Positions 5,910-31,363 of a DNA stretch of 32,000 nucleotides are shown here, in pieces (positions within the stretch are counted from its first letter, which is position 1; every line of letters begins with the position of its first letter). The notes under the pieces were generated by a model that was not told where the DNA came from, did not search any database, and saw only the letters and a program-made list of their open reading frames with translations. The DNA comes from Candidatus Saccharimonadota bacterium. GTDB lineage: Bacteria > Patescibacteriota > Saccharimonadia > Saccharimonadales > UBA4665. The stretch is taken from the NCBI GenBank assembly GCA_963718045.1, contig OY970350.1:720001-752000 (forward strand), written 5' to 3'. Position numbers and translations under genes: made by a program.

Positions 5910-6404
5910 TTATTTCATTGATACTTTGACCATAGCGTGACGGATTACTTCCCCGTCCAAAGTATAGCCAGGCATAAATTCTTCGGTAATTATCTCTTTA
6001 GTGCCTTCACTATTTGGATCCATTTGGACTGCTTCATGGTAGCGCGGATCAAAGACCTCATTTATTGTCTTTATTTTTTCAACGCCTAAAGATTCTAGCG
6101 CTTGCCAAAGTTGTTTGTTGACACCACCAAGACCTTTATGCCACTCCATCATGGTTCTATCTGTGGCTTTTGGTGTATGATTTAAGGCTCTTTCAAAATT
6201 ATCTATAAATGGCAGCAGATCTTTAATAACTGTTGCCTTAAAGAAGCTGGCCATTTTAAAACGGTCTTCTTCTGCTCTTCTACGGACATTAATGGCATCC
6301 GCCCGTTCTCTTTGAAGAGCCTCAGTTAGTTCTAAAACTTGTCTTTCAAGTTCTTCTATTTCTGGACGATTATGTGTTTGTGTTTTCTTATGATGATCGG
6401 CCAT
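5910..6404 (-). CDS. grpE: nucleotide exchange factor GrpE
   Basis: 164 aa. N-terminal coiled coil, LLPFIDNFERAL motif and C-terminal beta domain (GYTLDGEVIRHAMVKV). Confidence 0.93.
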   Translation of the reverse strand: MADHHKKTQTHNRPEIEELERQVLELTEALQRERADAINVRRRAEEDRFKMASFFKATVIKDLLPFIDNFERALNHTPKATDRTMMEWHKGLGGVNKQLWQALESLGVEKIKTINEVFDPRYHEAVQMDPNSEGTKEIITEEFMPGYTLDGEVIRHAMVKVSMK

Positions 6405-6414
6405 TAACTCATCC

Positions 6415-7122
6415 CTATATAATTAATAATTCTTCCAGTTCCTGGCCAGCTTGGCTGACAAGGTTCATTACTTCTCTGTAGCTCTGTCTGGTTGGGCCTA
6501 ATGTCCCAATGTAGCTGCGGTCACTAAACGGACCACGGAATCGGCTTATTACTAACGTGCAGCCAGCTGAACGGCCAATCGGATTTTCCTGACCGATATA
6601 GACACTTAAGGCTTCATTGGGAGCGGCTTCTTTAAGCCATGGCTCAAGGTTATCCAGTAGCCTTGCTACTTGCTGTACCTGATACGTATCTAAAAACTCA
6701 GGCTGGTCAAAGAGATTGCTAAGGCCGCTAATATATAGCTGGTTGCCGATAGTAGCCAGTCCCAGATTATGTGTCAGCTCGACTAAAGTATCGACAGCAT
6801 TTCTAATCATTCTCTCGGGTGCACCGCCATGCTGGACACGCGAAGACAGTGCTCTGGCTGCCCTTCTTTCAATACTAGTGTCGATGTGATTTTCCGGCAG
6901 GCTGTTAACGTAAAATCTATATCCCATGTCTGTTGGTACACGGCCGGCACTGGTATGAGGTTGGCTAATAAAGCCAAGCCGTTCCAGTTCAGCCATTTCT
7001 GCCCTAATAGTAGCTGAAGATACCTTAAAAGCTTTAGCCAGCAGACTGCTGCCGACAGGGCTAGCCACTTCAGCGTATTGCTCAACTATGGCATTTAAGA
7101 TTCGTTTCTGACGATCAGTCAT
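6415..7122 (-). CDS. hrcA: heat-inducible transcription repressor HrcA (short form)
   Basis: N-terminal winged helix: RQKRILNAIVEQY..PVGSSLLAK..VSSATIRAEMAELERLGFISQPHTSAGRVPTDMGYRFYV. Only 235 aa. A CIRCE lies just upstream. Confidence 0.9.
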   Translation of the reverse strand: MTDRQKRILNAIVEQYAEVASPVGSSLLAKAFKVSSATIRAEMAELERLGFISQPHTSAGRVPTDMGYRFYVNSLPENHIDTSIERRAARALSSRVQHGGAPERMIRNAVDTLVELTHNLGLATIGNQLYISGLSNLFDQPEFLDTYQVQQVARLLDNLEPWLKEAAPNEALSVYIGQENPIGRSAGCTLVISRFRGPFSDRSYIGTLGPTRQSYREVMNLVSQAGQELEELLII

Positions 7123-9784: not shown

Positions 9785-9800
9785 AGGGAGAAGTATTATC

Positions 9801-11399
9801 TCATACTTGCCATTTAACAGGTCGTAGTATTAACCGTTTTAGACGGCTAAGGACCGGTTTAACTTCGTCAAGATCAAACAATGAAGATACGCCGATATGA
9901 ACAGCAAGTGTGACTAAGGCAATTAAAGCTACCTTGCTGCCTAGCTCAAAGAAGCCTTTGTTTTTAATTTCAAGCGGATAAATGGAGATCATAATAAAGC
10001 CGGCTACAACGGTAAAGCCGGTAACTGAAGCTATCCGGACAAGGCCTCTTATAAACTCGAGGTCAAACAATTTTTTGTCTCTTTTAACCATGATGACAGT
10101 CAGTATAGCTACTTCAGTGGCCGCTACAATGGACTGAGCTAAAGCCAGTCCGACTACTCCGTAAAGTGACCGCCTAGATAGTGTGTAAGCCAAAATTATG
10201 TTAAGACCAACGGTAAAGACCGATACAAAGAGAGGCGTCTTAGTGTCTTTATGGGAATAGAACCAGCGGGAAATAATGGAATACATAATGCCGAAGAATA
10301 TAGCGCCAATCATGAAGCCAAAGATTAAAGCAATTTGGGAGTTGCCTCTTGTATAGATAAGACGGGCTAAATATCCCCGGCAGTAAAAGCCAATAACAAC
10401 GACCGGTGCCGCCAGCCAAACCATTATTCTAATTATTTTAAGAAAGTCTTTACGGAACAGATCAGGTCTCCCCTGGGCCAGACGGTGGTTTAGTCTCGGA
10501 AAGACAGCCGTAGATATGGCTGTACCCAGCAGCATAATTGGTGCCGTACTTAATACATAGGCGTTGTTGAAGTTTGTAATTGAACCTGAACCCAGACCAC
10601 TAGCCAGGTGTGTTTCAATAATATCTTCCACCTGGTCCATTCCCTGGTCTAATGATCTTGGCGGCAAGTTCCGAAGAACAGTATGGAAGTCTTTGCTGTG
10701 CCACATAATCTTGGGGCTCCAATGGAAGTTAGAGTTCAGGGCACCAACACCAATTATTAGCAGCTGAAGAACTGCGCCAATTAAGGCACCGAGGCCCAAG
10801 CCGATTAAACCGATATTATTTTTAAAGACAAATATGGAGATAATAATAGACAGGTTGTATGAAAGAGGAGCTATAGCATAAAAGAAGAAGCGGCCGAAGG
10901 TTTGCTGGACTGAAGATAAAATACCGGAGACAGTAAATATGAAAGGGTTAAAGGCCAGCAGACGCATTATGGCGGCAGCAGTATTAGTTTCAACTGGAGA
11001 CAAACCTGGAGCTACAACATGGTGAATCAGCCATTTAGCAAAAACTAGGATAATTATAGCTACAATGAACATAACTACAGCCAGCAGGTTAAGCAGCGAG
11101 TTAGATAAATCCCATACTTCTTTAACGCCATCCTTAGCATACCTGTCGGCTAGAACCGGTATTAAAGCTACACCTAGGGCACCGGCAGATAGAGTGAAGT
11201 AAAAGAAATCTGGGACGTTAAAGGCAGCAAAGTAGGCATCCGTACTATGTGCTCCAACTAATGGGAAGTTAGCGTTTACTAGTTTAGTTCTTAAAAAGCC
11301 AAGTACCTGGGTAGCAAGCGTTGAGGCCATAAGAAGAGCAGCAACATTAGTAATGCTGACCCGGTGTAAAGTATGGCCGGTTTCTTTTGGACTATTCAT
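9801..11399 (-). CDS. murJ: lipid II flippase MurJ/MviN family
   Basis: 532 aa, roughly 14 hydrophobic helices. The N-terminal region (ATQVLGFLRTKLVNANF) and overall layout are typical of MviN/MurJ. Confidence 0.85.
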   Translation of the reverse strand: MNSPKETGHTLHRVSITNVAALLMASTLATQVLGFLRTKLVNANFPLVGAHSTDAYFAAFNVPDFFYFTLSAGALGVALIPVLADRYAKDGVKEVWDLSNSLLNLLAVVMFIVAIIILVFAKWLIHHVVAPGLSPVETNTAAAIMRLLAFNPFIFTVSGILSSVQQTFGRFFFYAIAPLSYNLSIIISIFVFKNNIGLIGLGLGALIGAVLQLLIIGVGALNSNFHWSPKIMWHSKDFHTVLRNLPPRSLDQGMDQVEDIIETHLASGLGSGSITNFNNAYVLSTAPIMLLGTAISTAVFPRLNHRLAQGRPDLFRKDFLKIIRIMVWLAAPVVVIGFYCRGYLARLIYTRGNSQIALIFGFMIGAIFFGIMYSIISRWFYSHKDTKTPLFVSVFTVGLNIILAYTLSRRSLYGVVGLALAQSIVAATEVAILTVIMVKRDKKLFDLEFIRGLVRIASVTGFTVVAGFIMISIYPLEIKNKGFFELGSKVALIALVTLAVHIGVSSLFDLDEVKPVLSRLKRLILRPVKWQV

Positions 11400-13363: not shown

Positions 13364-14257
13364 CTAGCGCTCTAGATGCTCGAGTGCCAAATTGTCTTTT
13401 GAAGAAGTTATTACCCAGGAATTATAGACATCCACTTTATGTTTTGGACCAATAGTTTTAAGCTGCACGTTAAGTCTTTCAATGGTCATACGGTCAAACT
13501 CGCTTAAGCCATTTTGCCGCAGCCAACTAGCTAGAAGTTCTTTGCCTAGTGAATAATCTAGGCTGTTTAAAAATAGTCTGGGCAGCTGGTTGTGACTTAA
13601 ATTAGCTTTTAAAATTTCAGCTAAATCCTTATCGATTTGCTCATTTAAGGCTTGCTGTTTGTTAATAATATCTAGCAGTCTAGTCCGGCTTTTATTATCT
13701 AATTTAGGAACAATTTGGCGGCGGATATAATTCCTTAAATACTTGACGTCTTGGTTGGTGGGATCTTCATGCCAAGTTAAATTATGTTTTAAAGCATAGT
13801 TTGTAATATCCTTTTTAGAATAAACGAGAAGTGGCCGAAGAATTGTTTTGTTTGAAGAAAGTGAGCTTAAACCTTTCCTGCCCGTCCCGCGGATAATATT
13901 AATGATGGCTGTTTCAATTTGGTCATCCTGGTGGTGAGCAGTTATTAAACCGTCTGCTTTTTCTTTTTTAACTACTTCGTTTAAAAAGGCATACCGGGCA
14001 TTTCTGGCTTCTTCTTCACTAGCCTTTTGACCTAAATGGCCTTCGCCGTAGTAGAACTTAAAACCATAGTTTTTGGCTAATTGTTCGACAAACAACCGAT
14101 CTTTTTTAGAATCGTTTCTAATACCGTGGTCGAAGTGGGCAACAACCAACTCTAAATTGTCTTTTGGCAGATCAGTTAACAAACTTAGCAGAACGACAGA
14201 ATCAACCCCGCCGCTAACTGCAACAACGTATTTACCTTTTATCTTCTCAAGCCTCAT
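13364..14257 (-). CDS. tilS: tRNA(Ile)-lysidine synthase TilS
   Basis: 297 aa. PP-loop VAVSGGVDSVVL, AHHQDDQIET motif, and the conserved tilS-ftsH adjacency. Confidence 0.9.
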   Translation of the reverse strand: MRLEKIKGKYVVAVSGGVDSVVLLSLLTDLPKDNLELVVAHFDHGIRNDSKKDRLFVEQLAKNYGFKFYYGEGHLGQKASEEEARNARYAFLNEVVKKEKADGLITAHHQDDQIETAIINIIRGTGRKGLSSLSSNKTILRPLLVYSKKDITNYALKHNLTWHEDPTNQDVKYLRNYIRRQIVPKLDNKSRTRLLDIINKQQALNEQIDKDLAEILKANLSHNQLPRLFLNSLDYSLGKELLASWLRQNGLSEFDRMTIERLNVQLKTIGPKHKVDVYNSWVITSSKDNLALEHLER

Positions 14258-14324
14258 AATATAAGTGTACTAGAACTGTTACGGTTTTGGATTAATCTAT
14301 TACTTTAATATAATCATGTTGCAA

Positions 14325-14401
14325 GGCGGCGTAGCTCAGCTGGTTAGAGCACAGGACTCATAAGCCTGGGGTCAGTGGTTCAAGTCCACTCGCCGCTACC
14401 A
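14325..14401 (+). tRNA. tRNA with CAT anticodon, elongator tRNA-Met-like
   Basis: My fold gives a cloverleaf: acceptor GGCGGCG/CGCCGCT, D arm GCTC/GAGC, loop CT-CAT-AA, variable GGGTC, T arm AGTGG-TTCAAGT-CCACT, encoded CCA. It resembles E. coli elongator tRNA-Met as I recall it and lacks initiator features. It has a G1-U72 wobble and an A31/G39 mismatch. Confidence 0.85.
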
Positions 14402-14420
14402 TGACGGTTGGTTATTTGTA

Positions 14421-14449
14421 TTGACATTAATTAACACTGGATATACAAT
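14421..14449 (+). promoter_or_regulatory. near-consensus sigma70 promoter of the TA operon
   Basis: TTGACA (14421-14426), 17-nt spacer, TACAAT (14444-14449). The spacer starts with the palindrome TTAATTAA. The ATG at 14459 is about 10 nt after the -10 with no SD, so near-leaderless. Confidence 0.55.
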
Positions 14450-14458
14450 GTAATTACT

Positions 14459-14695
14459 ATGAATACTACCATTATTAGCATAGGTAATTCACGAGGTGTG
14501 CGTATCCCAAAGCCTCTCTTAGAGGAAAGTGAGTTGGATAATAACGTTGTTATTACGGCTAAAAGAGGCGAGATACGTATAACTGCTGCTAAAAAACCGA
14601 GGGTTATTTCTGAAACTATGCTGTTATCTGAAGAGGCATTAGCAAAAGATTGGTTAAGGCCTGAGGAAGATAAAGCATGGGCACATTTACAGTAG
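14459..14695 (+). CDS. mazE: AbrB/SpoVT-domain antitoxin (MazE family)
   Basis: 78 aa. TIISIGNSRGVRIPKPLLEES is the typical swapped-hairpin AbrB/MazE N-terminus. Overlaps the downstream toxin ORF by 19 nt. Confidence 0.8.
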   Translation: MNTTIISIGNSRGVRIPKPLLEESELDNNVVITAKRGEIRITAAKKPRVISETMLLSEEALAKDWLRPEEDKAWAHLQ

Positions 14696-15006
14696 GACGG
14701 GTTGTATCTAGTAGCTTCCCCTTCTCTGATTTATCAACATCCAAAAGACGTCCGGCAATTATTGTTGCGTTGGTCGATTTTGATAATTTAATCTTATGCC
14801 AAATTACATCAAAACCTTATTCTAGCACTCGAGCGATAGCTTTAAGTACAACGGATTTCGAGTCAGGTAGTTTGTCTCGAGATAGTTTTATTAGACCTGA
14901 TAAATTGTTTACAGCTGATGAAACCGTAGTTAATAACGTTCACGGGATACTTAAGGAAGAAAAAACTCAAGAGATTTTAGAGGCTTTGCGCGGTCTTTTC
15001 AGTTAG
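14677..15006 (+). CDS. mazF: PemK/MazF-family endoribonuclease toxin
   Basis: 109 aa. GRVVSSSFPFSDLSTSKRRPAIIVA...LILCQITSK...SFIRPDKLFTAD follows the MazF/PemK pattern. Translationally coupled to the antitoxin. Confidence 0.85.
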   Translation: MGTFTVGRVVSSSFPFSDLSTSKRRPAIIVALVDFDNLILCQITSKPYSSTRAIALSTTDFESGSLSRDSFIRPDKLFTADETVVNNVHGILKEEKTQEILEALRGLFS

Positions 15007-15191
15007 CATACTGTATGGGTTCAATAACTCACGCTTAGACTGCAACAGCAGTCTCTCCCCTAAGGTTTTAACTATATTCCATATCTCTATCAATTCATGT
15101 TTAACTTGGTTCCATTTCGTCCATGTCATGCCTACTAATACTTCTATGGTTAGCAGTTTACCCTGATTCAATATAAAATAATGAATAATCT

Positions 15192-15422
15192 ATGAAAGTA
15201 GTTTTATCTCGCGCTAACATTATTATGGCCATAGTTGTTATCGTTGCTTTAATAATAGGTTTTGCAGTTGGATTCCTCTATAAGGACAAGTGGTTAAATG
15301 ATTCTTCTAATAAGAGTCCCATCACAGGAAGTTATATGCTATGCAACTGTCCTAATGAGCCAGTAGGCGGTACGGTGACGGGTTACGGTCCTGGTCCGTG
15401 TCATTGTCCGACATATAAATAA
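15192..15422 (+). CDS. small single-TM protein with C-terminal CxC-x16-CxC motif
   Basis: 76 aa. N-terminal TM helix (IIMAIVVIVALIIGFAVGFL), then Cys51-x-Cys53 and Cys70-x-Cys72. No family recognised. Confidence 0.5.
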   Translation: MKVVLSRANIIMAIVVIVALIIGFAVGFLYKDKWLNDSSNKSPITGSYMLCNCPNEPVGGTVTGYGPGPCHCPTYK

Positions 15423-15449
15423 TAGGGTCTTAAGTTATAATCCATAAAA

Positions 15450-15989
15450 ATGAATGCTGTATTTAAAGAGTTTTTGGATGCTGGATACGAATATAATTTT
15501 GGCAATGGGCCTGACGTTATTAGAACAGAGTCTCAAGCAAAACAATTGGGGCTTAACTGTGTTACCCTTACGCATTTATTAATACCACGCCTTTTTGATA
15601 TTGAACTGCCTGGCAACATGAGGGGTTGGGAAATGTACTGCATTAATCCCTTTTTTGGCGATGTAGCTAGAGCAGAAGATATGGATCTGGGGGATGTTTT
15701 GTTTTTTGGCAGACCTACTCTACCTGAATATGCCTTGCAGTATTCTCCCGTATATGACGAGTACAAAGAGCTGACAAACGAAGAGATTGGCAACAATCTA
15801 ATTGGCCAAAAATATTCTGGAGTTCATTTAGCAATGAATACTGGAGAAGCAGATGATACAGAAAATCCTTTACTAATCCATGCCAGTAAGATGGAGGGGA
15901 CTGTAGTTATATGGTCGCTTGCCAAGTTCCTTGACTTAAAACAGTACTCAACAATCCATGCAATCAAGAGAACAATAAGGCAAGTTTAG
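15450..15989 (+). CDS. NlpC/P60-like papain-fold protein without signal peptide
   Basis: 179 aa. GLNC(37)VTL..IELPGN..LGDVLFFGRP..GVH(126)LAMNTG..LLIH(144)AS..GTVVIWSL aligns by eye to the MepS/Spr pattern GxDCSG..ELPR..GDLVFF..HVGIY..HAS. About 35 aa are inserted between the GDxxFF and His segments. Confidence 0.55.
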   Translation: MNAVFKEFLDAGYEYNFGNGPDVIRTESQAKQLGLNCVTLTHLLIPRLFDIELPGNMRGWEMYCINPFFGDVARAEDMDLGDVLFFGRPTLPEYALQYSPVYDEYKELTNEEIGNNLIGQKYSGVHLAMNTGEADDTENPLLIHASKMEGTVVIWSLAKFLDLKQYSTIHAIKRTIRQV

Positions 15990-16060
15990 ATTGTAATAGT
16001 AGTTTCTCCCTAATCTGTTAGGCTTATTTATCTATCCGTATATTGATATACTTTTTGCGT

Positions 16061-16606
16061 ATGAAAAGGCTGTATTTCGTAAGACATGGCGAGACTGAGA
16101 TGAATGTCGGCGGGTATTATTCAGGACGAATCGAAACACCGTTAACATCTACGGGGGTTTCGCAAGCCAAAGCAACAGGTAAAAATCTCAAGCAAAAAAA
16201 CTTAAGAATCGACTTAATTGTCAGCTCGCCACTTTCTAGAGCACACCACACAGCAGAGCTAATTGCAAAAGAGCTAGGTTATCCAAAAGATAAAATCCAG
16301 TTTAACAAACTGTTTGTTGAAAGGTCATTTGGAGACATGGAGGGGGTATCTTGGGCAAAATTCATGGAGAAAGATATGGATAATGTAAAAAACGTTGAAA
16401 CTGTTGCCGAACTTCATAATAGAGCAATGAATGCTCTTAAGTATCTAAATTCATTAAAAGAAGACAATGTACTTGTAGTCAGTCATGGAAGTTTCGGTAG
16501 AGCTTTATATCGAGTAGTAAATAAACTGCCACACCACCTGGAACATGACGATAAACACAGAAATAGTTTTAGAATTGGCAATGCTGAGATAGTCGAACTT
16601 ATATAG
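16061..16606 (+). CDS. histidine phosphatase superfamily (phosphoglycerate-mutase-like) protein
   Basis: LYFVRHGETEMN (RHG catalytic motif), SSPLSRAHHTAE, ERSFGDMEG and VVSHGSFGRAL. I prefer the ATG at 16061 over the TTG at 16043 given in the track. Confidence 0.85.
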   Translation: MKRLYFVRHGETEMNVGGYYSGRIETPLTSTGVSQAKATGKNLKQKNLRIDLIVSSPLSRAHHTAELIAKELGYPKDKIQFNKLFVERSFGDMEGVSWAKFMEKDMDNVKNVETVAELHNRAMNALKYLNSLKEDNVLVVSHGSFGRALYRVVNKLPHHLEHDDKHRNSFRIGNAEIVELI

Positions 16607-16872
16607 TCCTAATTAATGCATGGCCCGTATGCTACGAATAATTTATGCCTCAATTACTTTCCGGACAACTCAATACTTGAGCTGCTTGGTCTTCCTCTTA
16701 AAGCTTAGTGAGTATCTTGTCTATGTCTCGTATGCCTTGGTCAGTACTAGTTACTAACTCAAAACCTATTTGTGATTGGGTTTTCATATCTTTCCCTTTT
16801 TTTGTTTTTTGTTGATTAGATTTAATCTAATTAGCAATCATAGGGCTTATGATTAGCTTTGGCAAGAGTTTT

Positions 16873-17187
16873 TTAAAGATTTTTGGAAGATTTTTTAGAA
16901 GAGATAAAAATATAGACGGATACAAAGATAGCAACGAGTACTAAAATGGCTATCGGAATGAAGGCAGAGACGTTATATTGGGCAGTAGTTTTGCTTTCTG
17001 GCAAGTTTAGGGATGATGTTTTAAGTGAAGTAGTCGAGCTTAGTGGTATAGGTGAACCGGAAGACTGGGTATTTATTGAGCTTAAACCGGTAGAGCTTTG
17101 AGGGTTTTGTTGGTTACCTGTTGAAAGTGAATTAGAGCCCGTACTTTGAGGGTTGCTTGTAGTTATACCGATGTTATTATCCATCAC
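16873..17187 (-). CDS. Ser/Thr/Gln-rich low-complexity protein with C-terminal TM anchor
   Basis: 104 aa. About 75 aa of S/T/Q/N-rich sequence, then the hydrophobic helix FIPIAILVLVAIFVSVYIFI and a basic tail. Confidence 0.5.
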   Translation of the reverse strand: MMDNNIGITTSNPQSTGSNSLSTGNQQNPQSSTGLSSINTQSSGSPIPLSSTTSLKTSSLNLPESKTTAQYNVSAFIPIAILVLVAIFVSVYIFISSKKSSKNL

Positions 17188-17261
17188 TCTATTGTAGGCT
17201 ATAGGTTAAGTATTTTATATATAAAGCAGTCTCTTATATGAAAATGATGCATGCTATAAAC

Positions 17262-17285
17262 AAAAACTCTGCATTAATAACAGAG
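17262..17285 (-). terminator. possible intrinsic terminator after initiator tRNA
   Basis: On the minus strand: CTCTG-ttattaatg-CAGAG followed by TTTTTGTTT, starting 12 nt after the tRNA 3' end. The stem is only 5 bp. Confidence 0.35.
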
Positions 17286-17297
17286 GTGAAAGTCTTA

Positions 17298-17372
17298 TGG
17301 TTGCGGGGGCAGGACTCGAACCTGCGACCTATTGGTTATGAGCCAATCGAGCTGCCGCTGCTCCACCCCGCG
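17298..17372 (-). tRNA. initiator tRNA-fMet (CAT)
   Basis: Reverse complement is CGCGGGGTGGAGCAGCGGCAGCTCGATTGGCTCATAACCAATAGGTCGCAGGTTCGAGTCCTGCCCCCGCAACCA. It has the C1xA72 mismatch and is near-identical in acceptor and D regions to E. coli tRNA-fMet as I recall it. CCA is encoded. Confidence 0.92.
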
Positions 17373-17432
17373 ATATACTTATTTGACATGTTATTCTAGC
17401 ATAATATCTTGATCTGGCCAAGAGGTGGAGGT

Positions 17433-17891
17433 TCAGGACTGAGTGTTTCTGTGAAGGAAAAAGTTAATCCAAGCTTCGTAGTTTAGTTCATTGCTGTTAT
17501 TAGTTGTCGCTGCTGATGAACTTGATGGCACATTCTTGGTATAGCTTAGAGCTACACTTGATGGCACTATAAGCTCAGTTTCACCAGGTGCAGCAAGTCC
17601 AAAGTTTTGGCGGGCAGATAATTCTAAGTATTGGTTAGATTTATAGTAGTTATTTTGGAGTGCAATAGTTGAATTTTGTAACTCGGAAACCTGGTTTTGT
17701 TGTTTAAGCTCAGTGACTTGCTTTTGAAGGCCGTAGTTAGACTGAATTGCTTTTGCTCCACTCCAGAATATTAGAAGTACTATGGCCATAAAGATTAATT
17801 GACCAGTAAATCTAATGTCACCAAATTTGGTTAGTTGGTGGGTTAGTTTTTGGGGGTAGTCTTTAAATTTTGATTTCATAGCAATTAACAC
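17433..17891 (-). CDS. FtsB/DivIC-like septum formation initiator
   Basis: Single TM (LIFMAIVLLIFWSG), a coiled coil (LQKQVTELKQQNQVSELQN), then YLELSARQNFGLAAPGETELIVP, typical of the FtsB/DivIC family. The track start is GTG; an alternative ATG lies at 17879. Confidence 0.65.
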   Translation of the reverse strand: MLIAMKSKFKDYPQKLTHQLTKFGDIRFTGQLIFMAIVLLIFWSGAKAIQSNYGLQKQVTELKQQNQVSELQNSTIALQNNYYKSNQYLELSARQNFGLAAPGETELIVPSSVALSYTKNVPSSSSAATTNNSNELNYEAWINFFLHRNTQS

Positions 17892-17953
17892 TTTATATTA
17901 TATAACTTTAGCTAAGTTCTGTTATACTTTTTATCTGTTAGGTAGCTAACAAT

Positions 17954-18232
17954 GGGGGCGTAGCTCATCGGTTAGAGCAGGCGGCTCAATAGGGCTGCTT
18001 ACATGGGTAACCAGTAAGTATATCCTGCCAAATTCGGGGAAACCTTATACTTTCAAGTATTGGTAATCCCGAGCCAAGTCCTGTGTTAAACGGGAAAGGT
18101 GTAGAGACTGTACGGTAGGCATCCTTATGGATGAAGAGACAGTCCGGACCACAAACTCTTTACGAGGCAACGAAAGTTGTAGTGGCGTGCATAACCGCTT
18201 GGTGGTAGGTTCGATTCCTACCGCCCCCACCA
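17954..18232 (+). tRNA. intron-containing tRNA(CAT), tRNA-Ile2 (lysidine)-like; exons 17954-17986 and 18190-18232
   Basis: The joined exons give a 76-nt cloverleaf. Elements: acceptor GGGGGCG/CGCCCCC, D arm GCTC/GAGC, anticodon stem GGCGG/CCGCT, loop CT-CAT-AA, variable TGGTG, T arm GTAGG-TTCGATT-CCTAC, discriminator A, CCA. The anticodon arm and variable region closely match E. coli ileX as I recall it (GGCGA-CUCAUAA-UCGCU-UGGUC). Confidence 0.85.
17987..18189 (+). ncRNA. group I intron (small IC3-like, no ORF) in the tRNA anticodon loop
   Basis: 203 nt. P1: exon CGGCU (17982-17986) pairs with intron GGCUG (17993-17997), with a U33-G wobble at the splice site. P2 hairpin 17998-18018 has a GUAA tetraloop. 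Core strings CCAAATTCGGGGAAACC (18028-18044), CCCGAGCCAAG (18068-18078) and AAGGTGTAGAGACT (18096-18109) parallel the Azoarcus tRNA-Ile intron from memory. It ends in G (18189). Confidence 0.85.
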
Positions 18233-18284
18233 TTTCAATAAAATATGTCGTAACCTCTTTAAATTTCAGTTCTGACATCCATCA

Positions 18285-19277
18285 TTAAGCTACAACTCTT
18301 AATGCCTGCCTGCCAATATGCCTATCTCTATTTTTTTGAGTTAACTCAGTTGCTATTTGGTCCAGTTCGGGGACAGGAAAGGGCGGTGTGTTTCCGTCTC
18401 TAACGGCAGTGTCATTTAAGTGATTGAGTAGATCGTCATCTCGACGAAGAGGCGAGACGAAACCACCATAAGGGTTTAAACGCAATGATCCATGGCCAGT
18501 AGGTATGGTAGAAAATTCAGTGACTCCGAATAAGCTGTCTGGGATGTCTTCTTGAGGTTCATCAGGATTTTTACTGTCAGGTTCTAATTCAGATTTTGGC
18601 GGTCTTTGCTTTTGATTTCTATATATCCACGGTATGCCTTGTCTTAGTGCGTCTTTGGCAACCAAGTGATTGGCGGTAACCATCATCATCTGAACACTAT
18701 ATGGTGCTATATTTGTAGGAGGAGCTTTTAGACTGGCACCAATGTGCGGGCCAAGAAGTTTAGCAACTGTTGCAATTCTAACGGCACGATCGTCTTCACT
18801 ACGTATTAAGTTGTCAAATTCACTGTAGTCAGTAGTTAAGTAATCGGTCAACCTTGTACGCTGTAGACTATAGTTAAAGATTCCATCATTTTCTGGATCG
18901 AAGTCAAAACCGACTGTTACCGTTGGAATACCTGGACCATAAGGGTCAGCACCTAAGTTTAATAGCCCTCTATATAAACTTTGGGGTAACATAGCACCAT
19001 TATCTTCGCTACGACTTTGAGCCGTTTTACTATATCTGCTCCAACCTCTTCGTCGGGCATTTTGAACTGCTAAAGATTCTGGATCGATTATTCCACAGTC
19101 GACGATGTGAATTCCAACTTCCCAGAATCCATCATAATTCCAGTCTGCTCTTATAAAATCATCAATTTCTTGGGGTTTAGGTGAGTCAATCGCAATACCG
19201 GTTTCTGGAGGGCGATCTAATAGTTCTTTCTGAGAAAAATGCCAAGTGCCTTCGATGCATTCAGCTGAGACCGACAT
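18285..19277 (-). CDS. RNB-domain-only RNase II/R-family exoribonuclease homologue
   Basis: 330 aa. Motif I is IAID(31)SPKPQE(37)ID(39)D(40)F followed by GIHIVDCG. It also has ARRRGWSRY...MLPQSL, MMMVTANHLVAKDALRQGIPWIYRNQ and HGSLRLNPYGGFVSPLRRDDDLLNH (compare SPIRRYxDLxxH). No CSD or S1 domains. Confidence 0.7.
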   Translation of the reverse strand: MSVSAECIEGTWHFSQKELLDRPPETGIAIDSPKPQEIDDFIRADWNYDGFWEVGIHIVDCGIIDPESLAVQNARRRGWSRYSKTAQSRSEDNGAMLPQSLYRGLLNLGADPYGPGIPTVTVGFDFDPENDGIFNYSLQRTRLTDYLTTDYSEFDNLIRSEDDRAVRIATVAKLLGPHIGASLKAPPTNIAPYSVQMMMVTANHLVAKDALRQGIPWIYRNQKQRPPKSELEPDSKNPDEPQEDIPDSLFGVTEFSTIPTGHGSLRLNPYGGFVSPLRRDDDLLNHLNDTAVRDGNTPPFPVPELDQIATELTQKNRDRHIGRQALRVVA

Positions 19278-19402
19278 GGATCCTTCTCAGTATCATAGCT
19301 TTATATAAGCATAAGTTTATTAATATGTTAATACTAAAACTTGGGGATTAAACTGTTAATGTTTGGAGAGCCATCAGGGGCTTGAACTTTCTGGGTATCA
19401 AA

Positions 19403-19423
19403 ATGGTTCTAGTTTGGTTCGGT
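19403..19423. repeat. 21-bp direct repeat copy A (downstream of HD gene)
   Basis: atggttctaGTttggttcggt matches 20073-20093 at 19 of 21 positions, same orientation. Confidence 0.55.
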
Positions 19424-19437
19424 GCGCCATATCAGAT

Positions 19438-20064
19438 CTAAGGTTGAGGGAAAAGGTGTAGATTTTTCTCCAAAATACTGTATAGCTCATGATAATACTC
19501 TGCTATTTCAGGTGACGTTGGGATTTTCTTCTCTTTTTCTTCTGTAAATTTAGCAAATGTAATACCCAGCTTATGCCAAATACGTCCTTCATTAAGATAG
19601 TCCATGATTGCTGGCTGTAATTTATCTAAAGCATAAACAAACTTAGCTTCCTCACTCTGGCCTTTTTCGTACTCCGTAATAGCATCAGTCAAGTCCGGGA
19701 AATCTGCCCAGTTTCTTTTTAGCTTGACTATGGCCTTTCGTTCTCGATCTTTTTGGTCTCTAATAGCCTCTTTATCATAGGAAAAAGTATCACCCGCATA
19801 GATTTCAACTATATCGTGAGCTAGACTAAGCTTAATCAACTTGCCGACATCTAGGTGGGGAAAAGAGGGTGCCAAAAACCACGCAATTATCGCCAGCGAG
19901 AAGCTATGGTCTATATCGTTCTCTGCTGTATCGACTGTAGGCGGTATACAGACCTTACGTTCTATTGAACCAAAAACCAATAACATACTCTGTAAATCAA
20001 TAATCCGTTTAACGGTAGGCTTGCTGATGGGTGCTGACTTGTCCATTAGTTTAAAATTATACAT
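19438..20064 (-). CDS. HD-domain phosphohydrolase (YfbR-like 5'-nucleotidase family)
   Basis: 208 aa. H..HSFSLAIIAWFL, then LSLAHDIVEIYAGDTF (HD...D metal ligands), in the YfbR/HD_3-like arrangement. Confidence 0.7.
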   Translation of the reverse strand: MYNFKLMDKSAPISKPTVKRIIDLQSMLLVFGSIERKVCIPPTVDTAENDIDHSFSLAIIAWFLAPSFPHLDVGKLIKLSLAHDIVEIYAGDTFSYDKEAIRDQKDRERKAIVKLKRNWADFPDLTDAITEYEKGQSEEAKFVYALDKLQPAIMDYLNEGRIWHKLGITFAKFTEEKEKKIPTSPEIAEYYHELYSILEKNLHLFPQP

Positions 20065-20072
20065 CTACTAAG

Positions 20073-20093
20073 ATGGTTCTAACTTGGTTCGGT
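20073..20093. repeat. 21-bp direct repeat copy B (overlaps last codons and stop of dus)
   Basis: atggttctaACttggttcggt. On the minus strand it reads ACC GAA CCA AGT TAG AACCAT, which is TEPS-stop of dus plus 6 nt. Confidence 0.55.
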
Positions 20094-21062
20094 ATACTTC
20101 ACCGCTTGTTCGTCTATTAGACTTAGAAGTTCATCAAAATCTTTAGCGGCCATTAACTTTTCTCGTATTTCACTTGCCCCTTCAAAGTTATTTATGTAAA
20201 CCTTACAAAACTTATTAAGTATCTTGACTGGCCTGGTTGATCCCCATGTCTTATGAAACAACTCTACATGATACTTAAACAGTCCTAGTTTTTGTTCTTT
20301 GGTCATATCTTGCCAAGGACTATTTTTAGAAAAAATATACGGGTCATTAAATATCCCCCGGCCAATCATGATACCGTCTAATTTATACTCTTTAGCTAAT
20401 TTTTCAGCCTGTTCTCTGCTTAATACATCGCCGTTACCAACGATTAGAGTATTAGGAGATACTTTGTCTCTAAGCTTCCCGATTTCACCTATAACCTGCC
20501 AGTTGGCTGGTACTTTGCTCATTTCTGTCCGTGTTCGTCCGTGAATAATCAGCATGTCTAGGTCTTGATTTAATAAGAACTCATGCCAGCTTAGGTCAAT
20601 TTCATAAAAGCCTAGTCTTGTTTTAACGCTAATGGGCAGTTTGCCTTTTGCGCCTTTCTTGGTAGCCTGGATAATTTCTTGTGCTAAAGGCCGGTTATTC
20701 ATCAGGCCGCTGCAGGCCCCATTAGAAACGACATCTTTAACAGGACAGCCCATGTTTACGTCTATGCCAGCAAAATCACCATATACTCCAGCAACTATTT
20801 CTTTAGCGCACAACATATAATTCTCAGGTTTTAAGCCCCATACTTGGGCTATCAGAGGTTGATCAATATCTGTATGGTTTAGCTTAATCCTTACTTTATC
20901 TCTACCTTTACTCTGAAGACCATCGACGTTAACAAATTCACTGAAAAATAGATCTGGTTTAGCACATTTGGCTACTATCTGTCTAAAAACAGTGTCAGTG
21001 ACTTCGTCCATTGGCGCAAGTATAAAGAAGGGTTTTGCTAAACTGCTCAGTTTATTACTCAT
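20079..21062 (-). CDS. dus: tRNA-dihydrouridine synthase (Dus family)
   Basis: 327 aa with FILAPMDEVTDTVFRQIV, catalytic NMGCPV and IIHGRTR, plus a C-terminal helical domain. Confidence 0.9.
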   Translation of the reverse strand: MSNKLSSLAKPFFILAPMDEVTDTVFRQIVAKCAKPDLFFSEFVNVDGLQSKGRDKVRIKLNHTDIDQPLIAQVWGLKPENYMLCAKEIVAGVYGDFAGIDVNMGCPVKDVVSNGACSGLMNNRPLAQEIIQATKKGAKGKLPISVKTRLGFYEIDLSWHEFLLNQDLDMLIIHGRTRTEMSKVPANWQVIGEIGKLRDKVSPNTLIVGNGDVLSREQAEKLAKEYKLDGIMIGRGIFNDPYIFSKNSPWQDMTKEQKLGLFKYHVELFHKTWGSTRPVKILNKFCKVYINNFEGASEIREKLMAAKDFDELLSLIDEQAVKYTEPS

Positions 21063-21071
21063 CTACGTATA

Positions 21072-22397
21072 CTAGCTTGTAACATCTAGTCCAAGAATAC
21101 TTATCGAGGCATCGCTAGATGCTCTCAGTTCTCGCCTTAGTTTAGCAGGAGTGCCGGCTGGGAGAACAGCAAATTTTGACAAGATTAGCCTTAGATAACT
21201 TTCTCTTCGCATCTGGTCTTGGACAGCGAGGTTAATAACCTTTCGAGCGTCACCAACGTTTAGATTTTTAACAGCTTCAGTGATACGATCTGCAACATCA
21301 GGGGTTGTAAAGTGAGGATTATATATATCGCCTACCATCTTACGCTTAAGATTGTTCGTAACAGGTTTTTCACTATCCAAGCGGTCAGTTTTTGTAGCTA
21401 GGGGATTTGCCATTACTACACCACTACCGGTCTTAAGAAAAGTCTGAATATCTAGGTAACGAATAAGAGCTGGATAACCTGGGTGATCAAGACTTATAAC
21501 ATCAGTTTCTTCGCCAAGCGTTATTCTTTGGTTTACACATTCTTGGAGTAATATTTCTAAGTCTTGAAGGGCTTCTCTAGATCTTACTGCATCCTCATAA
21601 TAATCTCCTGTCTCATAGACAATACTAACTGGGCCACGCTTAGGATTAAGCTGGCTGTTACCAGGAAGACGCCTGATAGATTGGCTGAAGTTATAGACTC
21701 CAATGAAATGATTGGTTAATCTTAGCGGATACTTAGGATTATCTAAATAATCTAGGTAGGTAATGAGCTGATTTTTCTCTTGATTTGTAGTTGGGGAGAA
21801 ACCAGCTCGTGGATCATCGAGTAATGCCTGGAGCCTAGCTGGGGTATCCAGTGTCTCGGTAACCTCAGCTACGCCTTGTTCTTTATGATCAGATGTTTTA
21901 TGTGGTCTAAGATTATGCATCCTGTTAGACTCAGACTGTAACAACATCATCTGATCAATCTGGGCAATTAGGTCTAGCATATATTCTTGGGGACTCTTTG
22001 TTTGATGACTTCGCGAGAAGTATTCTTTCCAAAAAGATGTGAAAAGCTGTTGTCCTGTAGCACCTACTGTTCGCATTTCTCTAAGACTAAAATCCTCGCT
22101 CACCTCCAGTCTATCTGAACCACTAGACTGTATGAACATCGTCTGGGCATCATATTTAAGTCGCCCTGCTTTGGCTCTAGAATTTCGTACAATAGGTGAT
22201 AGACCAGCAACTCTATCCAGAAACTGAGCTTGTTGCAGATTAGCAATTGTATTCTGTAGAAGAATGGAGCGCTCAACAATATTAACTTTTACGCCATCAA
22301 CAGATTCTTGTGTATCAAACCGTGAGTCTGGGCTAGTTTGCCCTGTGATTGATGATATTACAAAAAATTCAGCTTGTTCTGGTTTAGTTGGCTTCAT
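21072..22397 (-). CDS. hypothetical soluble protein, no recognisable domain
   Basis: 441-aa uninterrupted ORF with no TM segments. Its stop is 9 nt from the dus start, so it is probably co-transcribed. Confidence 0.7.
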   Translation of the reverse strand: MKPTKPEQAEFFVISSITGQTSPDSRFDTQESVDGVKVNIVERSILLQNTIANLQQAQFLDRVAGLSPIVRNSRAKAGRLKYDAQTMFIQSSGSDRLEVSEDFSLREMRTVGATGQQLFTSFWKEYFSRSHQTKSPQEYMLDLIAQIDQMMLLQSESNRMHNLRPHKTSDHKEQGVAEVTETLDTPARLQALLDDPRAGFSPTTNQEKNQLITYLDYLDNPKYPLRLTNHFIGVYNFSQSIRRLPGNSQLNPKRGPVSIVYETGDYYEDAVRSREALQDLEILLQECVNQRITLGEETDVISLDHPGYPALIRYLDIQTFLKTGSGVVMANPLATKTDRLDSEKPVTNNLKRKMVGDIYNPHFTTPDVADRITEAVKNLNVGDARKVINLAVQDQMRRESYLRLILSKFAVLPAGTPAKLRRELRASSDASISILGLDVTS

Positions 22398-25292: not shown

Positions 25293-25928
25293 ATGGATTT
25301 CTCTAACCGCGGACCTCAACTCAATATGAGTGGCCAGGGTAATAACCAAGACCAAGATGAGGTTAACCAAAGTCGACCAGCGAGTCATTTAAATCAAACT
25401 AAAAATAAAAAACAGGGTGATTGGTCACGCAGTAAATTATCTAGAATAGTTCAGGCGTTATTAACTCTCTGTATCGTAGTAGTCATTGTTGGCTTACTTG
25501 TCTTTTTAGCTATTAGCAATAACACTAATAATTCTGAAAGCAGTTATGTCCAAACTAACAGACTGCAGGCTGTATTCTTAAGCACTGGCCAGGTATATTT
25601 CGGGACAGTTAAATCCCTTAATAACAACTTCCTAGTTTTAACAAATATCTTCTACCTGCAAACTAACGGTGGCAGTTCAACTAGTTCAGCAAGTACTAGC
25701 AACACCAAAGTTACTTTAGTCAAGTTAGGCTGTGAAATACATGCACCACTAGATCAGATGATCATTAACCGCTCATCGGTTACCTTTTGGGAAAACCTGT
25801 CACCAAGCGGTCAAGTAGCTCAGGCTGTCAACACATGGGAGAAACAAAATCCAAATGGTCAAAAGTGTAGTGACCAAAGTACCGCCGGCACATCCGGTCA
25901 AACGACTCCTCAAAACACTACAAAGTAG
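25293..25928 (+). CDS. hypothetical bitopic membrane protein
   Basis: 211 aa. Q/N-rich N-terminus, TM (ALLTLCIVVVIVGLLVFLAI), an extracytoplasmic domain (QAVFLSTGQVYFGTVKSL...) and an S/T-rich tail. SD GGTGGAAGG. Confidence 0.65.
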   Translation: MDFSNRGPQLNMSGQGNNQDQDEVNQSRPASHLNQTKNKKQGDWSRSKLSRIVQALLTLCIVVVIVGLLVFLAISNNTNNSESSYVQTNRLQAVFLSTGQVYFGTVKSLNNNFLVLTNIFYLQTNGGSSTSSASTSNTKVTLVKLGCEIHAPLDQMIINRSSVTFWENLSPSGQVAQAVNTWEKQNPNGQKCSDQSTAGTSGQTTPQNTTK

Positions 25929-30556: not shown

Positions 30557-31363
30557 TCAAGAAAATTGGAATGATTTGATTATGTCTAAGATAGGCGTCT
30601 CAAAGGACGAACTTGACCACATATTTGACGATATGGTGAGCGGCAGCAGACTCGTGCAGGCGGTGGTTTGACACTGCATAAAGCTGACTATAACTAACGG
30701 GCTTACCTTATTAATATCCGATGGCGGGATAGTCTGACCCTTCAGGTAGCCGCTATTGCCGGATACATAGATAGCATCAAGACCACCCTTAGTAACGGTT
30801 GCCGGGTACTGGACAAAACTAATGTAAGTCTGCGCTGCCTGGGAAGATGTTGGGCTGGTGAAAGTGATGTCTAAAGAATTTAAGACTGCTACAGAGGTGG
30901 TACCAAAGGCAGTTGGTATTTGGCCTTGGTTTAAGACCGTTAGGACTGTTTTGCCGCTGACTGTTTTGCCGCTGTCCGCTACCAGACTCATTATTGGTGA
31001 TGTAATGGTCATAGAAGTATTTCCGTTACTGGCTACCGTCCAAGTTGTTGGATAGTTAACAGTCAAATTAAATGGCGTCGATGTGTAGCTGGTTAGCTGG
31101 GTAGCTGGTGCGGCCGGCTTTGAGACAGCTGCTTTTTGAGAGCTGGCAGTATGAGACGTCTTTACTGGTGACTTGGTTTTTGTATGCTGGCCATAGAAAT
31201 AAGCACCAGCAGCGAGAATAATTAGAATAATCACCCCTGACACTATCAGCCATAGTTTATAATCTGTCTTCTTTGGCAATTTGTCTTTGGTATTAATATA
31301 GCTGAAGTCTTTAACCGGGATTTCTTTGTAGGGATCCTTTATCGGACGGTCTGGCAGCTCCAT
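30557..31363 (-). CDS. hypothetical bitopic membrane protein
   Basis: 268 aa. N-terminal cytoplasmic tail, TM (LWLIVSGVIILIILAAGAYFY), an S/T/A/P linker and an extracytoplasmic domain (FNLTVNYPTTWTV...). Confidence 0.65.
   Translation of the reverse strand: MELPDRPIKDPYKEIPVKDFSYINTKDKLPKKTDYKLWLIVSGVIILIILAAGAYFYGQHTKTKSPVKTSHTASSQKAAVSKPAAPATQLTSYTSTPFNLTVNYPTTWTVASNGNTSMTITSPIMSLVADSGKTVSGKTVLTVLNQGQIPTAFGTTSVAVLNSLDITFTSPTSSQAAQTYISFVQYPATVTKGGLDAIYVSGNSGYLKGQTIPPSDINKVSPLVIVSFMQCQTTACTSLLPLTISSNMWSSSSFETPILDIIKSFQFS
30945..30974. repeat. perfect 2 x 15-bp tandem duplication inside the 268-aa gene
   Basis: actgttttgccgctg at 30945-30959 and again at 30960-30974. It is in frame and encodes SGKTV-SGKTV. 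Confidence 0.9.

Follow-up and report, generated by a model that had tools for sequence, protein, structure and literature searches.

A tRNA(CAU) gene split in the anticodon loop

The window analysed here is the whole 32,000-nucleotide (nt) stretch of contig OY970350.1. We are confident that its positions 17954-18232 hold a tRNA(CAU) gene split at U33/C34 by a 203-nt IC3-like group I intron without an open reading frame (ORF), that the host is most likely tRNA-Ile2, and that the intron is optional in this lineage. Default ARAGORN missed the gene and reported only two tRNAs in the window, both CAU, at 14325-14401 (+) and 17298-17372 (-), as the original prediction had anticipated for finders that do not model such introns. 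When introns were allowed, ARAGORN called tRNA(cat) at 17954-18232 with the intron i(34,203), after tRNA position 33. The insertion point therefore lies in the anticodon loop, between tRNA positions 33 and 34. The 5′ exon (GGGGGCGTAGCTCATCGGTTAGAGCAGGCGGCT) and the 3′ exon (CATAACCGCTTGGTGGTAGGTTCGATTCCTACCGCCCCCACCA) were joined in silico into a 76-mer that forms a perfect cloverleaf with anticodon CAU and an encoded CCA, and ARAGORN accepted this sequence as tRNA(CAU). The same 76 nt occur naturally as an uninterrupted copy in a related locus (L043, described below).

A search with the Rfam model Intron_gpI (RF00028) gave a single group I match in the 32-kb window, at 17975-18166 (+), spanning the full model (1-253) with 67.6 bits (E 2.6e-15; gathering score 50 bits). 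The intron starts with CAATAGGG and ends with GGCGTG. No homing-endonuclease ORF was found inside its 203 nt, the sole ORF being antisense, running past the intron and lacking a Pfam match; the intron is without room for a protein gene.

Intron structure and covariation

Sixty-one base pairs from P1 to P9 were mapped manually, with the Rfam alignment and a published alignment of bacterial tRNA introns as guides, and all 61 are canonical in the window (Table 1). All core helices pair, including the P3/P7 pseudoknot, so that a P3-P8 core can indeed be folded. On its 5′ side, P1 takes up A26, the entire 5′ strand of the anticodon stem, C32 and U33, together with one intron nucleotide (the first), and the 5′ splice site is marked by the U17986.G17993 wobble. 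This wobble, the GUAA loop capping P2 (18007-18010) and the terminal G18189 are the three hallmarks from which a group I intron had originally been proposed, and each is present in the mapped structure. P7 is presumed, by homology, to be the guanosine-binding helix. The 3′ part of the P9 domain rests on hand mapping and homologues, because the Rfam model stops at 18166. The three core strings quoted earlier, at 18028-18044, 18068-18078 and 18096-18109, fall in J3/4-P4-J4/5-P5, P4′-P6 and J6/7-P7, respectively. IC3 traits are seen in the GNRA loops on P2 and P9, in the absence of P5abc and in the conserved AAAUUCGGGGAAACC, AAUCCCGAGCCAAG and GGUGUAGAGACU; the subgroup is thus assigned from hand-mapped helices and seed identity rather than by a formal classifier. 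The GC content of the intron is 47%.

Homologous introns were sought in one genome per GTDB species with a pattern linking GCU/CA to the P4 and P4′/P6 strings. This yielded 33 loci from Patescibacteria (including Saccharibacteria, Andersenbacteria and Uhrbacteria), Omnitrophota, Chloroflexota/Anaerolineae, Acidobacteria (Pyrinomonadaceae), cyanobacteria, Nitrospinaceae and Latescibacteria. The intron option of ARAGORN often misplaced the splice site in homologues (giving calls such as 'Leu caa' or 'Val cac') and was replaced by a splice-site solver that required U-1, omega-G and a valid cloverleaf. With the solver, a CAU tRNA split at exactly U33/C34 was found at 25 loci besides the window, in at least five phyla; seven of the 33 loci gave no CAU call at this position (five without a solution, two with other calls). 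For the window the solver also returned a 181-nt 'Arg' solution, which is spurious and is ruled out by L043. Roughly half of the 25 hosts are initiator-like and half Ile2-like tRNAs. Identity between the window intron and its homologues is only 58-71% (68% for the cyanobacterial L015 and L025), so there is no close relative among the GTDB species representatives. Six of the homologues (L012, L015, L016, L023, L025 and L029, from Pyrinomonadaceae, cyanobacteria and one member of the Anaerolineae) carry a 30-60-nt insertion in the P1 loop that is absent from the window intron.

The pairs of the window structure were then counted on a MAFFT alignment of 26 introns, with partners slid by one to three columns as controls. 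Paired cells made up 88.7%, compared with 31-52% in the slid controls, and double-sided changes were seen in 36 pairs. P4 is paired in 100% of cells and nearly invariant, and the CC/GG pairs at the base of P5 do not vary at all. Pairing reaches 98% in P6, 89% in P6a (where 5/5 pairs covary), 98.7% in P7 (whose last pair varies between U-A, A-U and G-C) and 97.6% in P8. In the P9 domain the values are 95% for P9, 94% for P9a and 99% for P9b, with 9 of the 11 pairs covarying. The centre of P1 (C-G / U.G / C-G) is invariant in 26/26 introns. Distal P1 (71%) and P2 (39-67%) are weakly paired in this count, because MAFFT takes no account of structure in these regions and large P1 insertions occur in some homologues; by eye in the alignment, most homologues carry a GNAA-type P2 loop. 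The invariance of omega-G is partly by construction, since the solver demanded a G before the 3′ exon.

Table 1. Features of the split tRNA(CAU) gene, of its intron and of related genes in the window.
Feature	Positions	Strand	Description	Basis
5′ exon	17954-17986	+	33 nt; tRNA positions 1-33; ends in universal U33 (intron U-1)	ARAGORN, introns allowed; equals 5′ half of uninterrupted L043 allele
Intron	17987-18189	+	203 nt; group I, ORF-less, IC3-like tRNA type	Rfam RF00028; 203-bp gap against L043; covariation in 26 homologues
P1	17979-18000	+	17979-17987 with guide 17992-18000; loop AAUA	Rfam alignment; 9/9 pairs canonical
P2	18001-18015	+	5 bp; bulged A18003; GUAA loop 18007-18010	Rfam alignment; hand mapping
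P3, 5′ strand	18024-18029	+	partner 18114-18119	100% of cells paired; 5/6 pairs covary
J3/4, P4, J4/5, P5/P5a, J5/4	18030-18073	+	J3/4 AAA; P4 18033-18038 with 18068-18073; J4/5 GAAA; P5/P5a hairpin 18043-18063; J5/4 UAAU	
P6 and P6a	18074-18099	+	P6 18074-75 with 18098-99; P6a 18079-18083 with 18091-18095	
P7, 5′ strand	18104-18110	+	bulged A18105; partner 18140-18145; pseudoknot with P3	
P3, 3′ strand	18114-18119	+		covariation count
P8 hairpin	18120-18133	+	5 bp; loop UUAU	5/5 pairs covary
P7, 3′ strand	18140-18145	+	CAGUCC	covariation count
P9 three-way domain	18149-18185	+	P9 18149-52 with 18182-85; P9a 18156-58 with 18164-66; P9b 18168-71 with 18176-79; GAAA tetraloop 18172-18175	
omega-G	18189	+	last intron nucleotide	G before CATAA invariant among 26 aligned sequences
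3′ exon	18190-18232	+	43 nt; tRNA positions 34-76; starts with anticodon CAU; encoded CCA at end	ARAGORN; L043 alignment
tilS	13364-14257	-	tRNA lysidine(34) synthetase, short 297-aa form	TIGR02432, 192 bits; Pfam PP-loop
tRNA(CAU), elongator-Met-type arm	14325-14401	+	uninterrupted; C27-G43, A28-U42, G44	
tRNA(CAU), initiator-like	17298-17372	-	uninterrupted; C1xA72 mismatch as in bacterial initiators	
Antisense ORF, spurious	18045-18278	-	77 aa; spans 3′ exon and 3′ 145 nt of intron	no Pfam match

An uninterrupted allele in a closely related genome

Metagenome contigs from JGI were scanned with a 38-nt pattern across the predicted exon junction. Exactly one match was obtained, locus L043 on a 253,567-bp contig. 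L043 is syntenic with the window, sharing the ABC transporter pair, a 441-amino-acid (aa) ORF, Dus, the RNB-domain protein, the tRNA(CAU), DivIC and the initiator tRNA, and its flanks are 94-95% identical to those of the window at the nucleotide level. Its tRNA(CAU) gene has no intron and matches the spliced window sequence at every position; it scores 67.7 bits on the Rfam tRNA model (gathering score 29 bits), the highest of the three tRNAs of the locus. No Rfam match to a group I intron was found in L043. Pairwise alignment with the window leaves a clean 203-bp gap. A CA/CA repeat permits three placements of this gap, of which only 17987-18189 gives both a U at -1 and a G at omega. We regard the L043 allele, a search for which the original prediction had proposed as a check, as the decisive evidence; what this sequence comparison reveals is the junction rather than the chemistry of splicing.

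Three independent assemblies of different samples contain the 279-nt split allele at 100% identity, and two more contain part of it, so the split gene is not an assembly artefact. A chance or chimeric origin is likewise ruled out by the Rfam match, the covariation and the identical independent assemblies. As judged from these alleles, the intron is optional, being present here and cleanly absent from a genome with ~95% identical flanks, and it has therefore been either recently gained or precisely lost.

Two further differences between the loci were observed. A toxin-antitoxin pair, MazE-like (weak) and PemK/MazF-like (33.7 bits), lies at 14459-15006 (+) directly after the tRNA gene at 14325-14401; in L043 it is replaced by an unrelated 330-aa ORF without a Pfam match (9785-10947), so that the stretch next to this tRNA gene forms a small variable islet. 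An HD_3 phosphohydrolase gene at 19438-20064 (within window positions 19342-20106) is missing from L043, in which Dus and the RNB gene are separated by 418 unaligned bases (6338-6756). This gene is a second presence/absence difference between the window and L043.

Identity of the host tRNA and alternative explanations

A CAU anticodon may belong to an initiator tRNA, to elongator tRNA-Met or to tRNA-Ile2. Against 5,426 E. coli genomes, the best match of the spliced tRNA was tRNA-Ile(CAT), and the best full-length match of the tRNA at 14325 was elongator tRNA-Met. E. coli tRNA-Ile2 has G27.U43, G28-C42, C29-G41, G30-C40 and U44 and is without U16, and E. coli tRNA-Met has C27-G43, A28-U42, U29-A41, C30-G40 and G44 (PMC2500205). 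The split tRNA carries all of the Ile2 features (G27.U43, G28-C42, C29-G41, G30-C40, U44 and an 8-nt D loop); the D loop of the tRNA at 14325 has 9 nt. The codon AUA is used 24 times per 1000 codons, which is one third of the Ile codons, and it occurs in DnaK, LepA and FtsH among others. The lysidine synthetase itself is encoded in the window, the tilS product scoring well above the TIGR02432 cut-off (93.6 bits; Table 1), and separate CAU tRNAs of elongator-Met and initiator type are encoded there too. From these sequence features we conclude that the split gene is probably a lysidine-dependent tRNA-Ile2.

Several points weigh against the overall interpretation. The acceptor-stem determinants of E. 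coli (type I) TilS, C4-G69 and C5-G68, are not in the split tRNA, which has G4-C69 and G5-C68. Such determinants vary by species, and the part of the enzyme that recognises them is a C-terminal domain (CTD2) that is lacking in short type II TilS (PMC11947777). The 297-aa TilS of the window is probably without this domain and, as the determinants differ between species, their absence weighs little. The Ile2 assignment nevertheless transfers rules worked out for E. coli to a bacterium far removed from it, and a second, intact tRNA-Ile2 gene may lie outside the 32-kb window. On the side of the ribozyme, P10 amounts to one base pair at most (C18190-G17992), P2 is short (5 bp and a bulge), and P5 presumably lacks the canonical 11-nt tetraloop receptor of Azoarcus.

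The alternative that survives best leaves the description of the intron unchanged and makes elongator tRNA-Met its host (class Met.2Ug), with the gene at 14325-14401 as the tRNA-Ile2. The ARAGORN label for the split gene is tRNA-Met, although this derives from the anticodon only. The window intron is 65% identical to the Sba135.Met.2Ug seed versus 47% to the Gba28.Ile2.2Ug seed of Williams (2020), the tRNA gene at 14325 directly adjoins tilS, and the missing E. coli determinants point the same way. However, the E. coli matches assign the two tRNAs the other way round. Moreover, the split tRNA goes the Ile2 way in each of the five anticodon-arm features and in the length of its D loop, while C27-G43, A28-U42 and G44 go the Met way in the tRNA at 14325. 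In our set, G27.U43 is also found in 9 of the 11 non-initiator hosts of this intron type; L014, L027 and L038 have a U27/C43 mismatch. We therefore consider a Met host unlikely.

Somewhat less probable still is that the intron is not truly autocatalytic in vivo and in vitro and that its splicing requires a host or other trans-acting protein. Peripheral contacts through P2 and P5 seem weaker than in Azoarcus (a short P2 and no canonical P5 receptor), and the GC content is moderate. However, the intron encodes no maturase, and self-splicing in vitro is known for the IC3 tRNA introns studied to date (Anabaena Leu, Azoarcus Ile, Agrobacterium Arg and cyanobacterial fMet).

That the intron is a decayed relic which no longer splices, leaving a pseudogene whose function is served by another copy, can be set aside as very improbable: splicing of the window intron is something we infer, P10 is minimal, P2 is short and the window covers just 4% of a ~0.83-Mb genome, but none of the core helices is disrupted, the positions invariant in the 26 homologues (among them U-1.G, the P4 and P7 sequences and omega-G) are all kept, the exons match the uninterrupted L043 allele exactly and show no decay, the allele is identical in three assemblies, AUA is heavily used and duplicate tRNAs are seldom kept in small genomes.

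Relationship to known introns

The insertion had been thought unusual, on the grounds that tRNA introns of this kind are classically known from cyanobacteria, plastids and a few proteobacteria and that insertions in the candidate phyla radiation (CPR) sit mainly in rRNA genes. This overstated the novelty. An intron between U33 and C34 of a CAU tRNA is already among the four classical bacterial classes, as fMet.2Ug. Williams (bioRxiv 10.1101/2020.01.27.920355) reports 5292 group I-split bacterial tRNA genes from ~80,000 genomes in 21 classes, adding 17 new classes to the four classical ones, all IC3 (Leu.3Ug, Arg.5Ug, fMet.2Ug and Ile2.5Ug). Its seed alignment includes Sba135.Met.2Ug and Gba28.Ile2.2Ug, which share the site of the window intron, and metagenome-assembled genomes (MAGs) of unnamed phyla have the second-highest frequency there, with 0.49 split tRNAs per genome. 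A paper on complete CPR genomes likewise mentions that tRNAs of CPR bacteria carry group I introns. CPR-focused work has otherwise dealt with rRNA insertions, group I introns with LAGLIDADG genes having been described in CPR rRNA genes (PMC11270868; PMC8172020), and the original impression is understandable but incomplete. The window intron resembles these rRNA introns in being a ribozyme that interrupts a structural RNA gene of a small-genome bacterium, but those lie in 16S and 23S genes, are much larger and carry homing endonucleases.

Among the seeds compared, the closest to the window intron was that of fMet.2Ug (Tpc1.fMet.2Ug, 73% identity), followed by Arg.3Ug (68%), Met.2Ug (65%), Leu.3Ug (63%), Ile2.5Ug (the Azoarcus type, 50%) and Ile2.2Ug (47%). 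With the cyanobacterial tRNA-fMet intron the window intron shares the U33/C34 site, the CAU anticodon loop, the local GCU/CAUAA and an IC3-type core. However, the cyanobacterial host is an initiator, whereas the host in the window is a non-initiator, Ile2-like tRNA and the initiator tRNA of the window is uninterrupted. The Synechocystis tRNA-fMet intron carries a homing-endonuclease ORF, which the window intron does not.

The parallel with the Azoarcus tRNA-Ile(CAU) intron (Ile2.5Ug) that had been drawn from the three core strings holds for those strings, and extends to the size (~205 nt), the GNRA loops on P2 and P9 and, if the Ile2 assignment is right, the host isotype. Overall, the window intron is closer to the fMet type (73% identity) than to the Azoarcus type (50%). 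The Azoarcus intron is inserted at 36/37, after the anticodon, and the window intron at 33/34, before it; the P9 architecture also differs, and there is no canonical P5 receptor. Met.2Ug and Ile2.2Ug of Williams (2020) have the same site, the same U-1 and omega-G and non-initiator CAU hosts, mostly from MAGs, though the core of the Ile2.2Ug seed differs from that of the window intron. The finding would be filed under Met.2Ug or Ile2.2Ug. The window intron looks like an fMet/Met-type core seated in an Ile2-like tRNA.

In a rough neighbour-joining tree (without support values and with long branches), the window intron stands on a long branch beside Patescibacteria initiator-tRNA introns, and Ile2-hosted introns are not monophyletic. 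These sequences hint at switching of the intron between CAU tRNAs. Since the intron is present or absent between genomes with ~95% identical flanks and its nearest relatives in the tree lie in Patescibacteria initiator tRNAs and not in other Ile2-like tRNAs, it is conceivable, though less likely than not, that an ORF-less intron is currently mobile in a small-genome lineage (probably Patescibacteria), moving between tRNA-fMet and tRNA-Ile2 without a homing endonuclease by way of the shared GCU/CAUAA, for example by reverse splicing or recombination.

A scan of IMG/VR with the CAU-specific pattern gave no matches. A generic core pattern matched at least 120 predicted viral contigs (L048-L167), in other tRNAs, with none above ~77% identity among the matches listed. 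Raw ARAGORN calls on the matches listed include Arg(UCU), Leu(UAA), Phe, Ser and others; Tyr 'ata', His 'atg' and similar anticodons are probably splice-position artefacts. Some of these contigs may derive from proviruses and contain tRNA genes of the host.

Gene neighbourhood

The window is a piece of ordinary bacterial chromosome (~41% GC) that encodes DnaK, DnaJ, HrcA, Gmk, LepA, MurJ, FtsH, TilS, DivIC, an RNB-domain protein, an HD hydrolase, Dus, ABC transporters and a Mur ligase. FtsH is ~52% identical at the amino acid level to that of two 'Patescibacteria group' MAGs with the gene order TilS-FtsH(-MurJ), the closest among the named loci compared, which hints at a CPR affiliation without proving it. 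Components for decoding AUG and AUA are clustered, with tilS and the three CAU tRNAs (Met, initiator and the split Ile2-like gene) lying within 5 kb (13364-18232), and this cluster is kept in L043. The initiator-like tRNA at 17298-17372 (-) has only two G-C pairs by the anticodon loop (AUUGG/CCAAU) instead of the usual three. Two such pairs are likewise seen in the split initiator tRNAs of Patescibacteria and Omnitrophota loci (L010, L011, L013, L018 and L032); the cyanobacterial ones have three.

Beside the split tRNA, the RNB-domain protein (18285-19277, -) has 330 aa and covers the first ~140 of the 326 positions of the RNB profile. A JGI cluster-mate is named 'exoribonuclease R', but the protein scores far under the NCBIfam cut-offs. 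No Pfam match was found for the ORFs at 21072-22397 (-, 441 aa), 15450-15989 (+, 179 aa), 25293-25928 (+, 211 aa) and 30557-31363 (-, 268 aa); for those of 441 and 179 aa there was no NCBIfam match either. The 441-aa ORF is kept in L043 at ~85% nucleotide identity, below that of its neighbours. The 77-aa antisense ORF, which gene callers had been predicted to report, is indeed annotated as a gene in a public assembly (L002, 7000-7233). It cannot exist in L043, because that locus is intron-less.

Proposed splicing pathway

From the anatomy of the intron and established group I chemistry we infer the following order of events. The split gene would be transcribed as a pre-tRNA, in which the guide at 17992-18000 would form P1 with the final 8 nucleotides of the exon and set U17986.G17993 at the 5′ splice site. 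The P3-P9 core, including the P3/P7 pseudoknot, would fold, and an exogenous guanosine bound in P7 would cleave after U33. Omega-G18189 would then occupy the guanosine site of P7 while the 3′-OH of U33 attacks after G18189, joining U33 to C34 and releasing the intron. TilS, encoded 4 kb away, would finally convert C34, the first nucleotide past the junction, to lysidine, which would allow charging with Ile and reading of AUA. As its 5′ strand is held in P1, the anticodon stem would be formable only after splicing. Lysidine formation, Ile charging and AUA decoding should thus depend on prior splicing, given that P1 ties up the anticodon-stem strand and that C34 directly follows the junction.

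Implications

The class of intron, its site and its wide phyletic spread are already on record, so that the locus opens no new question and would not surprise a specialist. It adds a well-documented case of a group I intron within a tRNA gene of a bacterium with a small genome, together with a natural pair of intron-plus and intron-minus alleles. There is also a lesson for annotation. Because default tRNA finders miss the split gene, a ~0.83-Mb genome would seem to be without a decoder for AUA, a third of its Ile codons; moreover, a false 77-aa protein antisense to the ribozyme now stands in at least one public gene catalogue. For the bacterium itself, the locus illustrates a dependency in which the anticodon stem and C34 would become available to TilS only after splicing.

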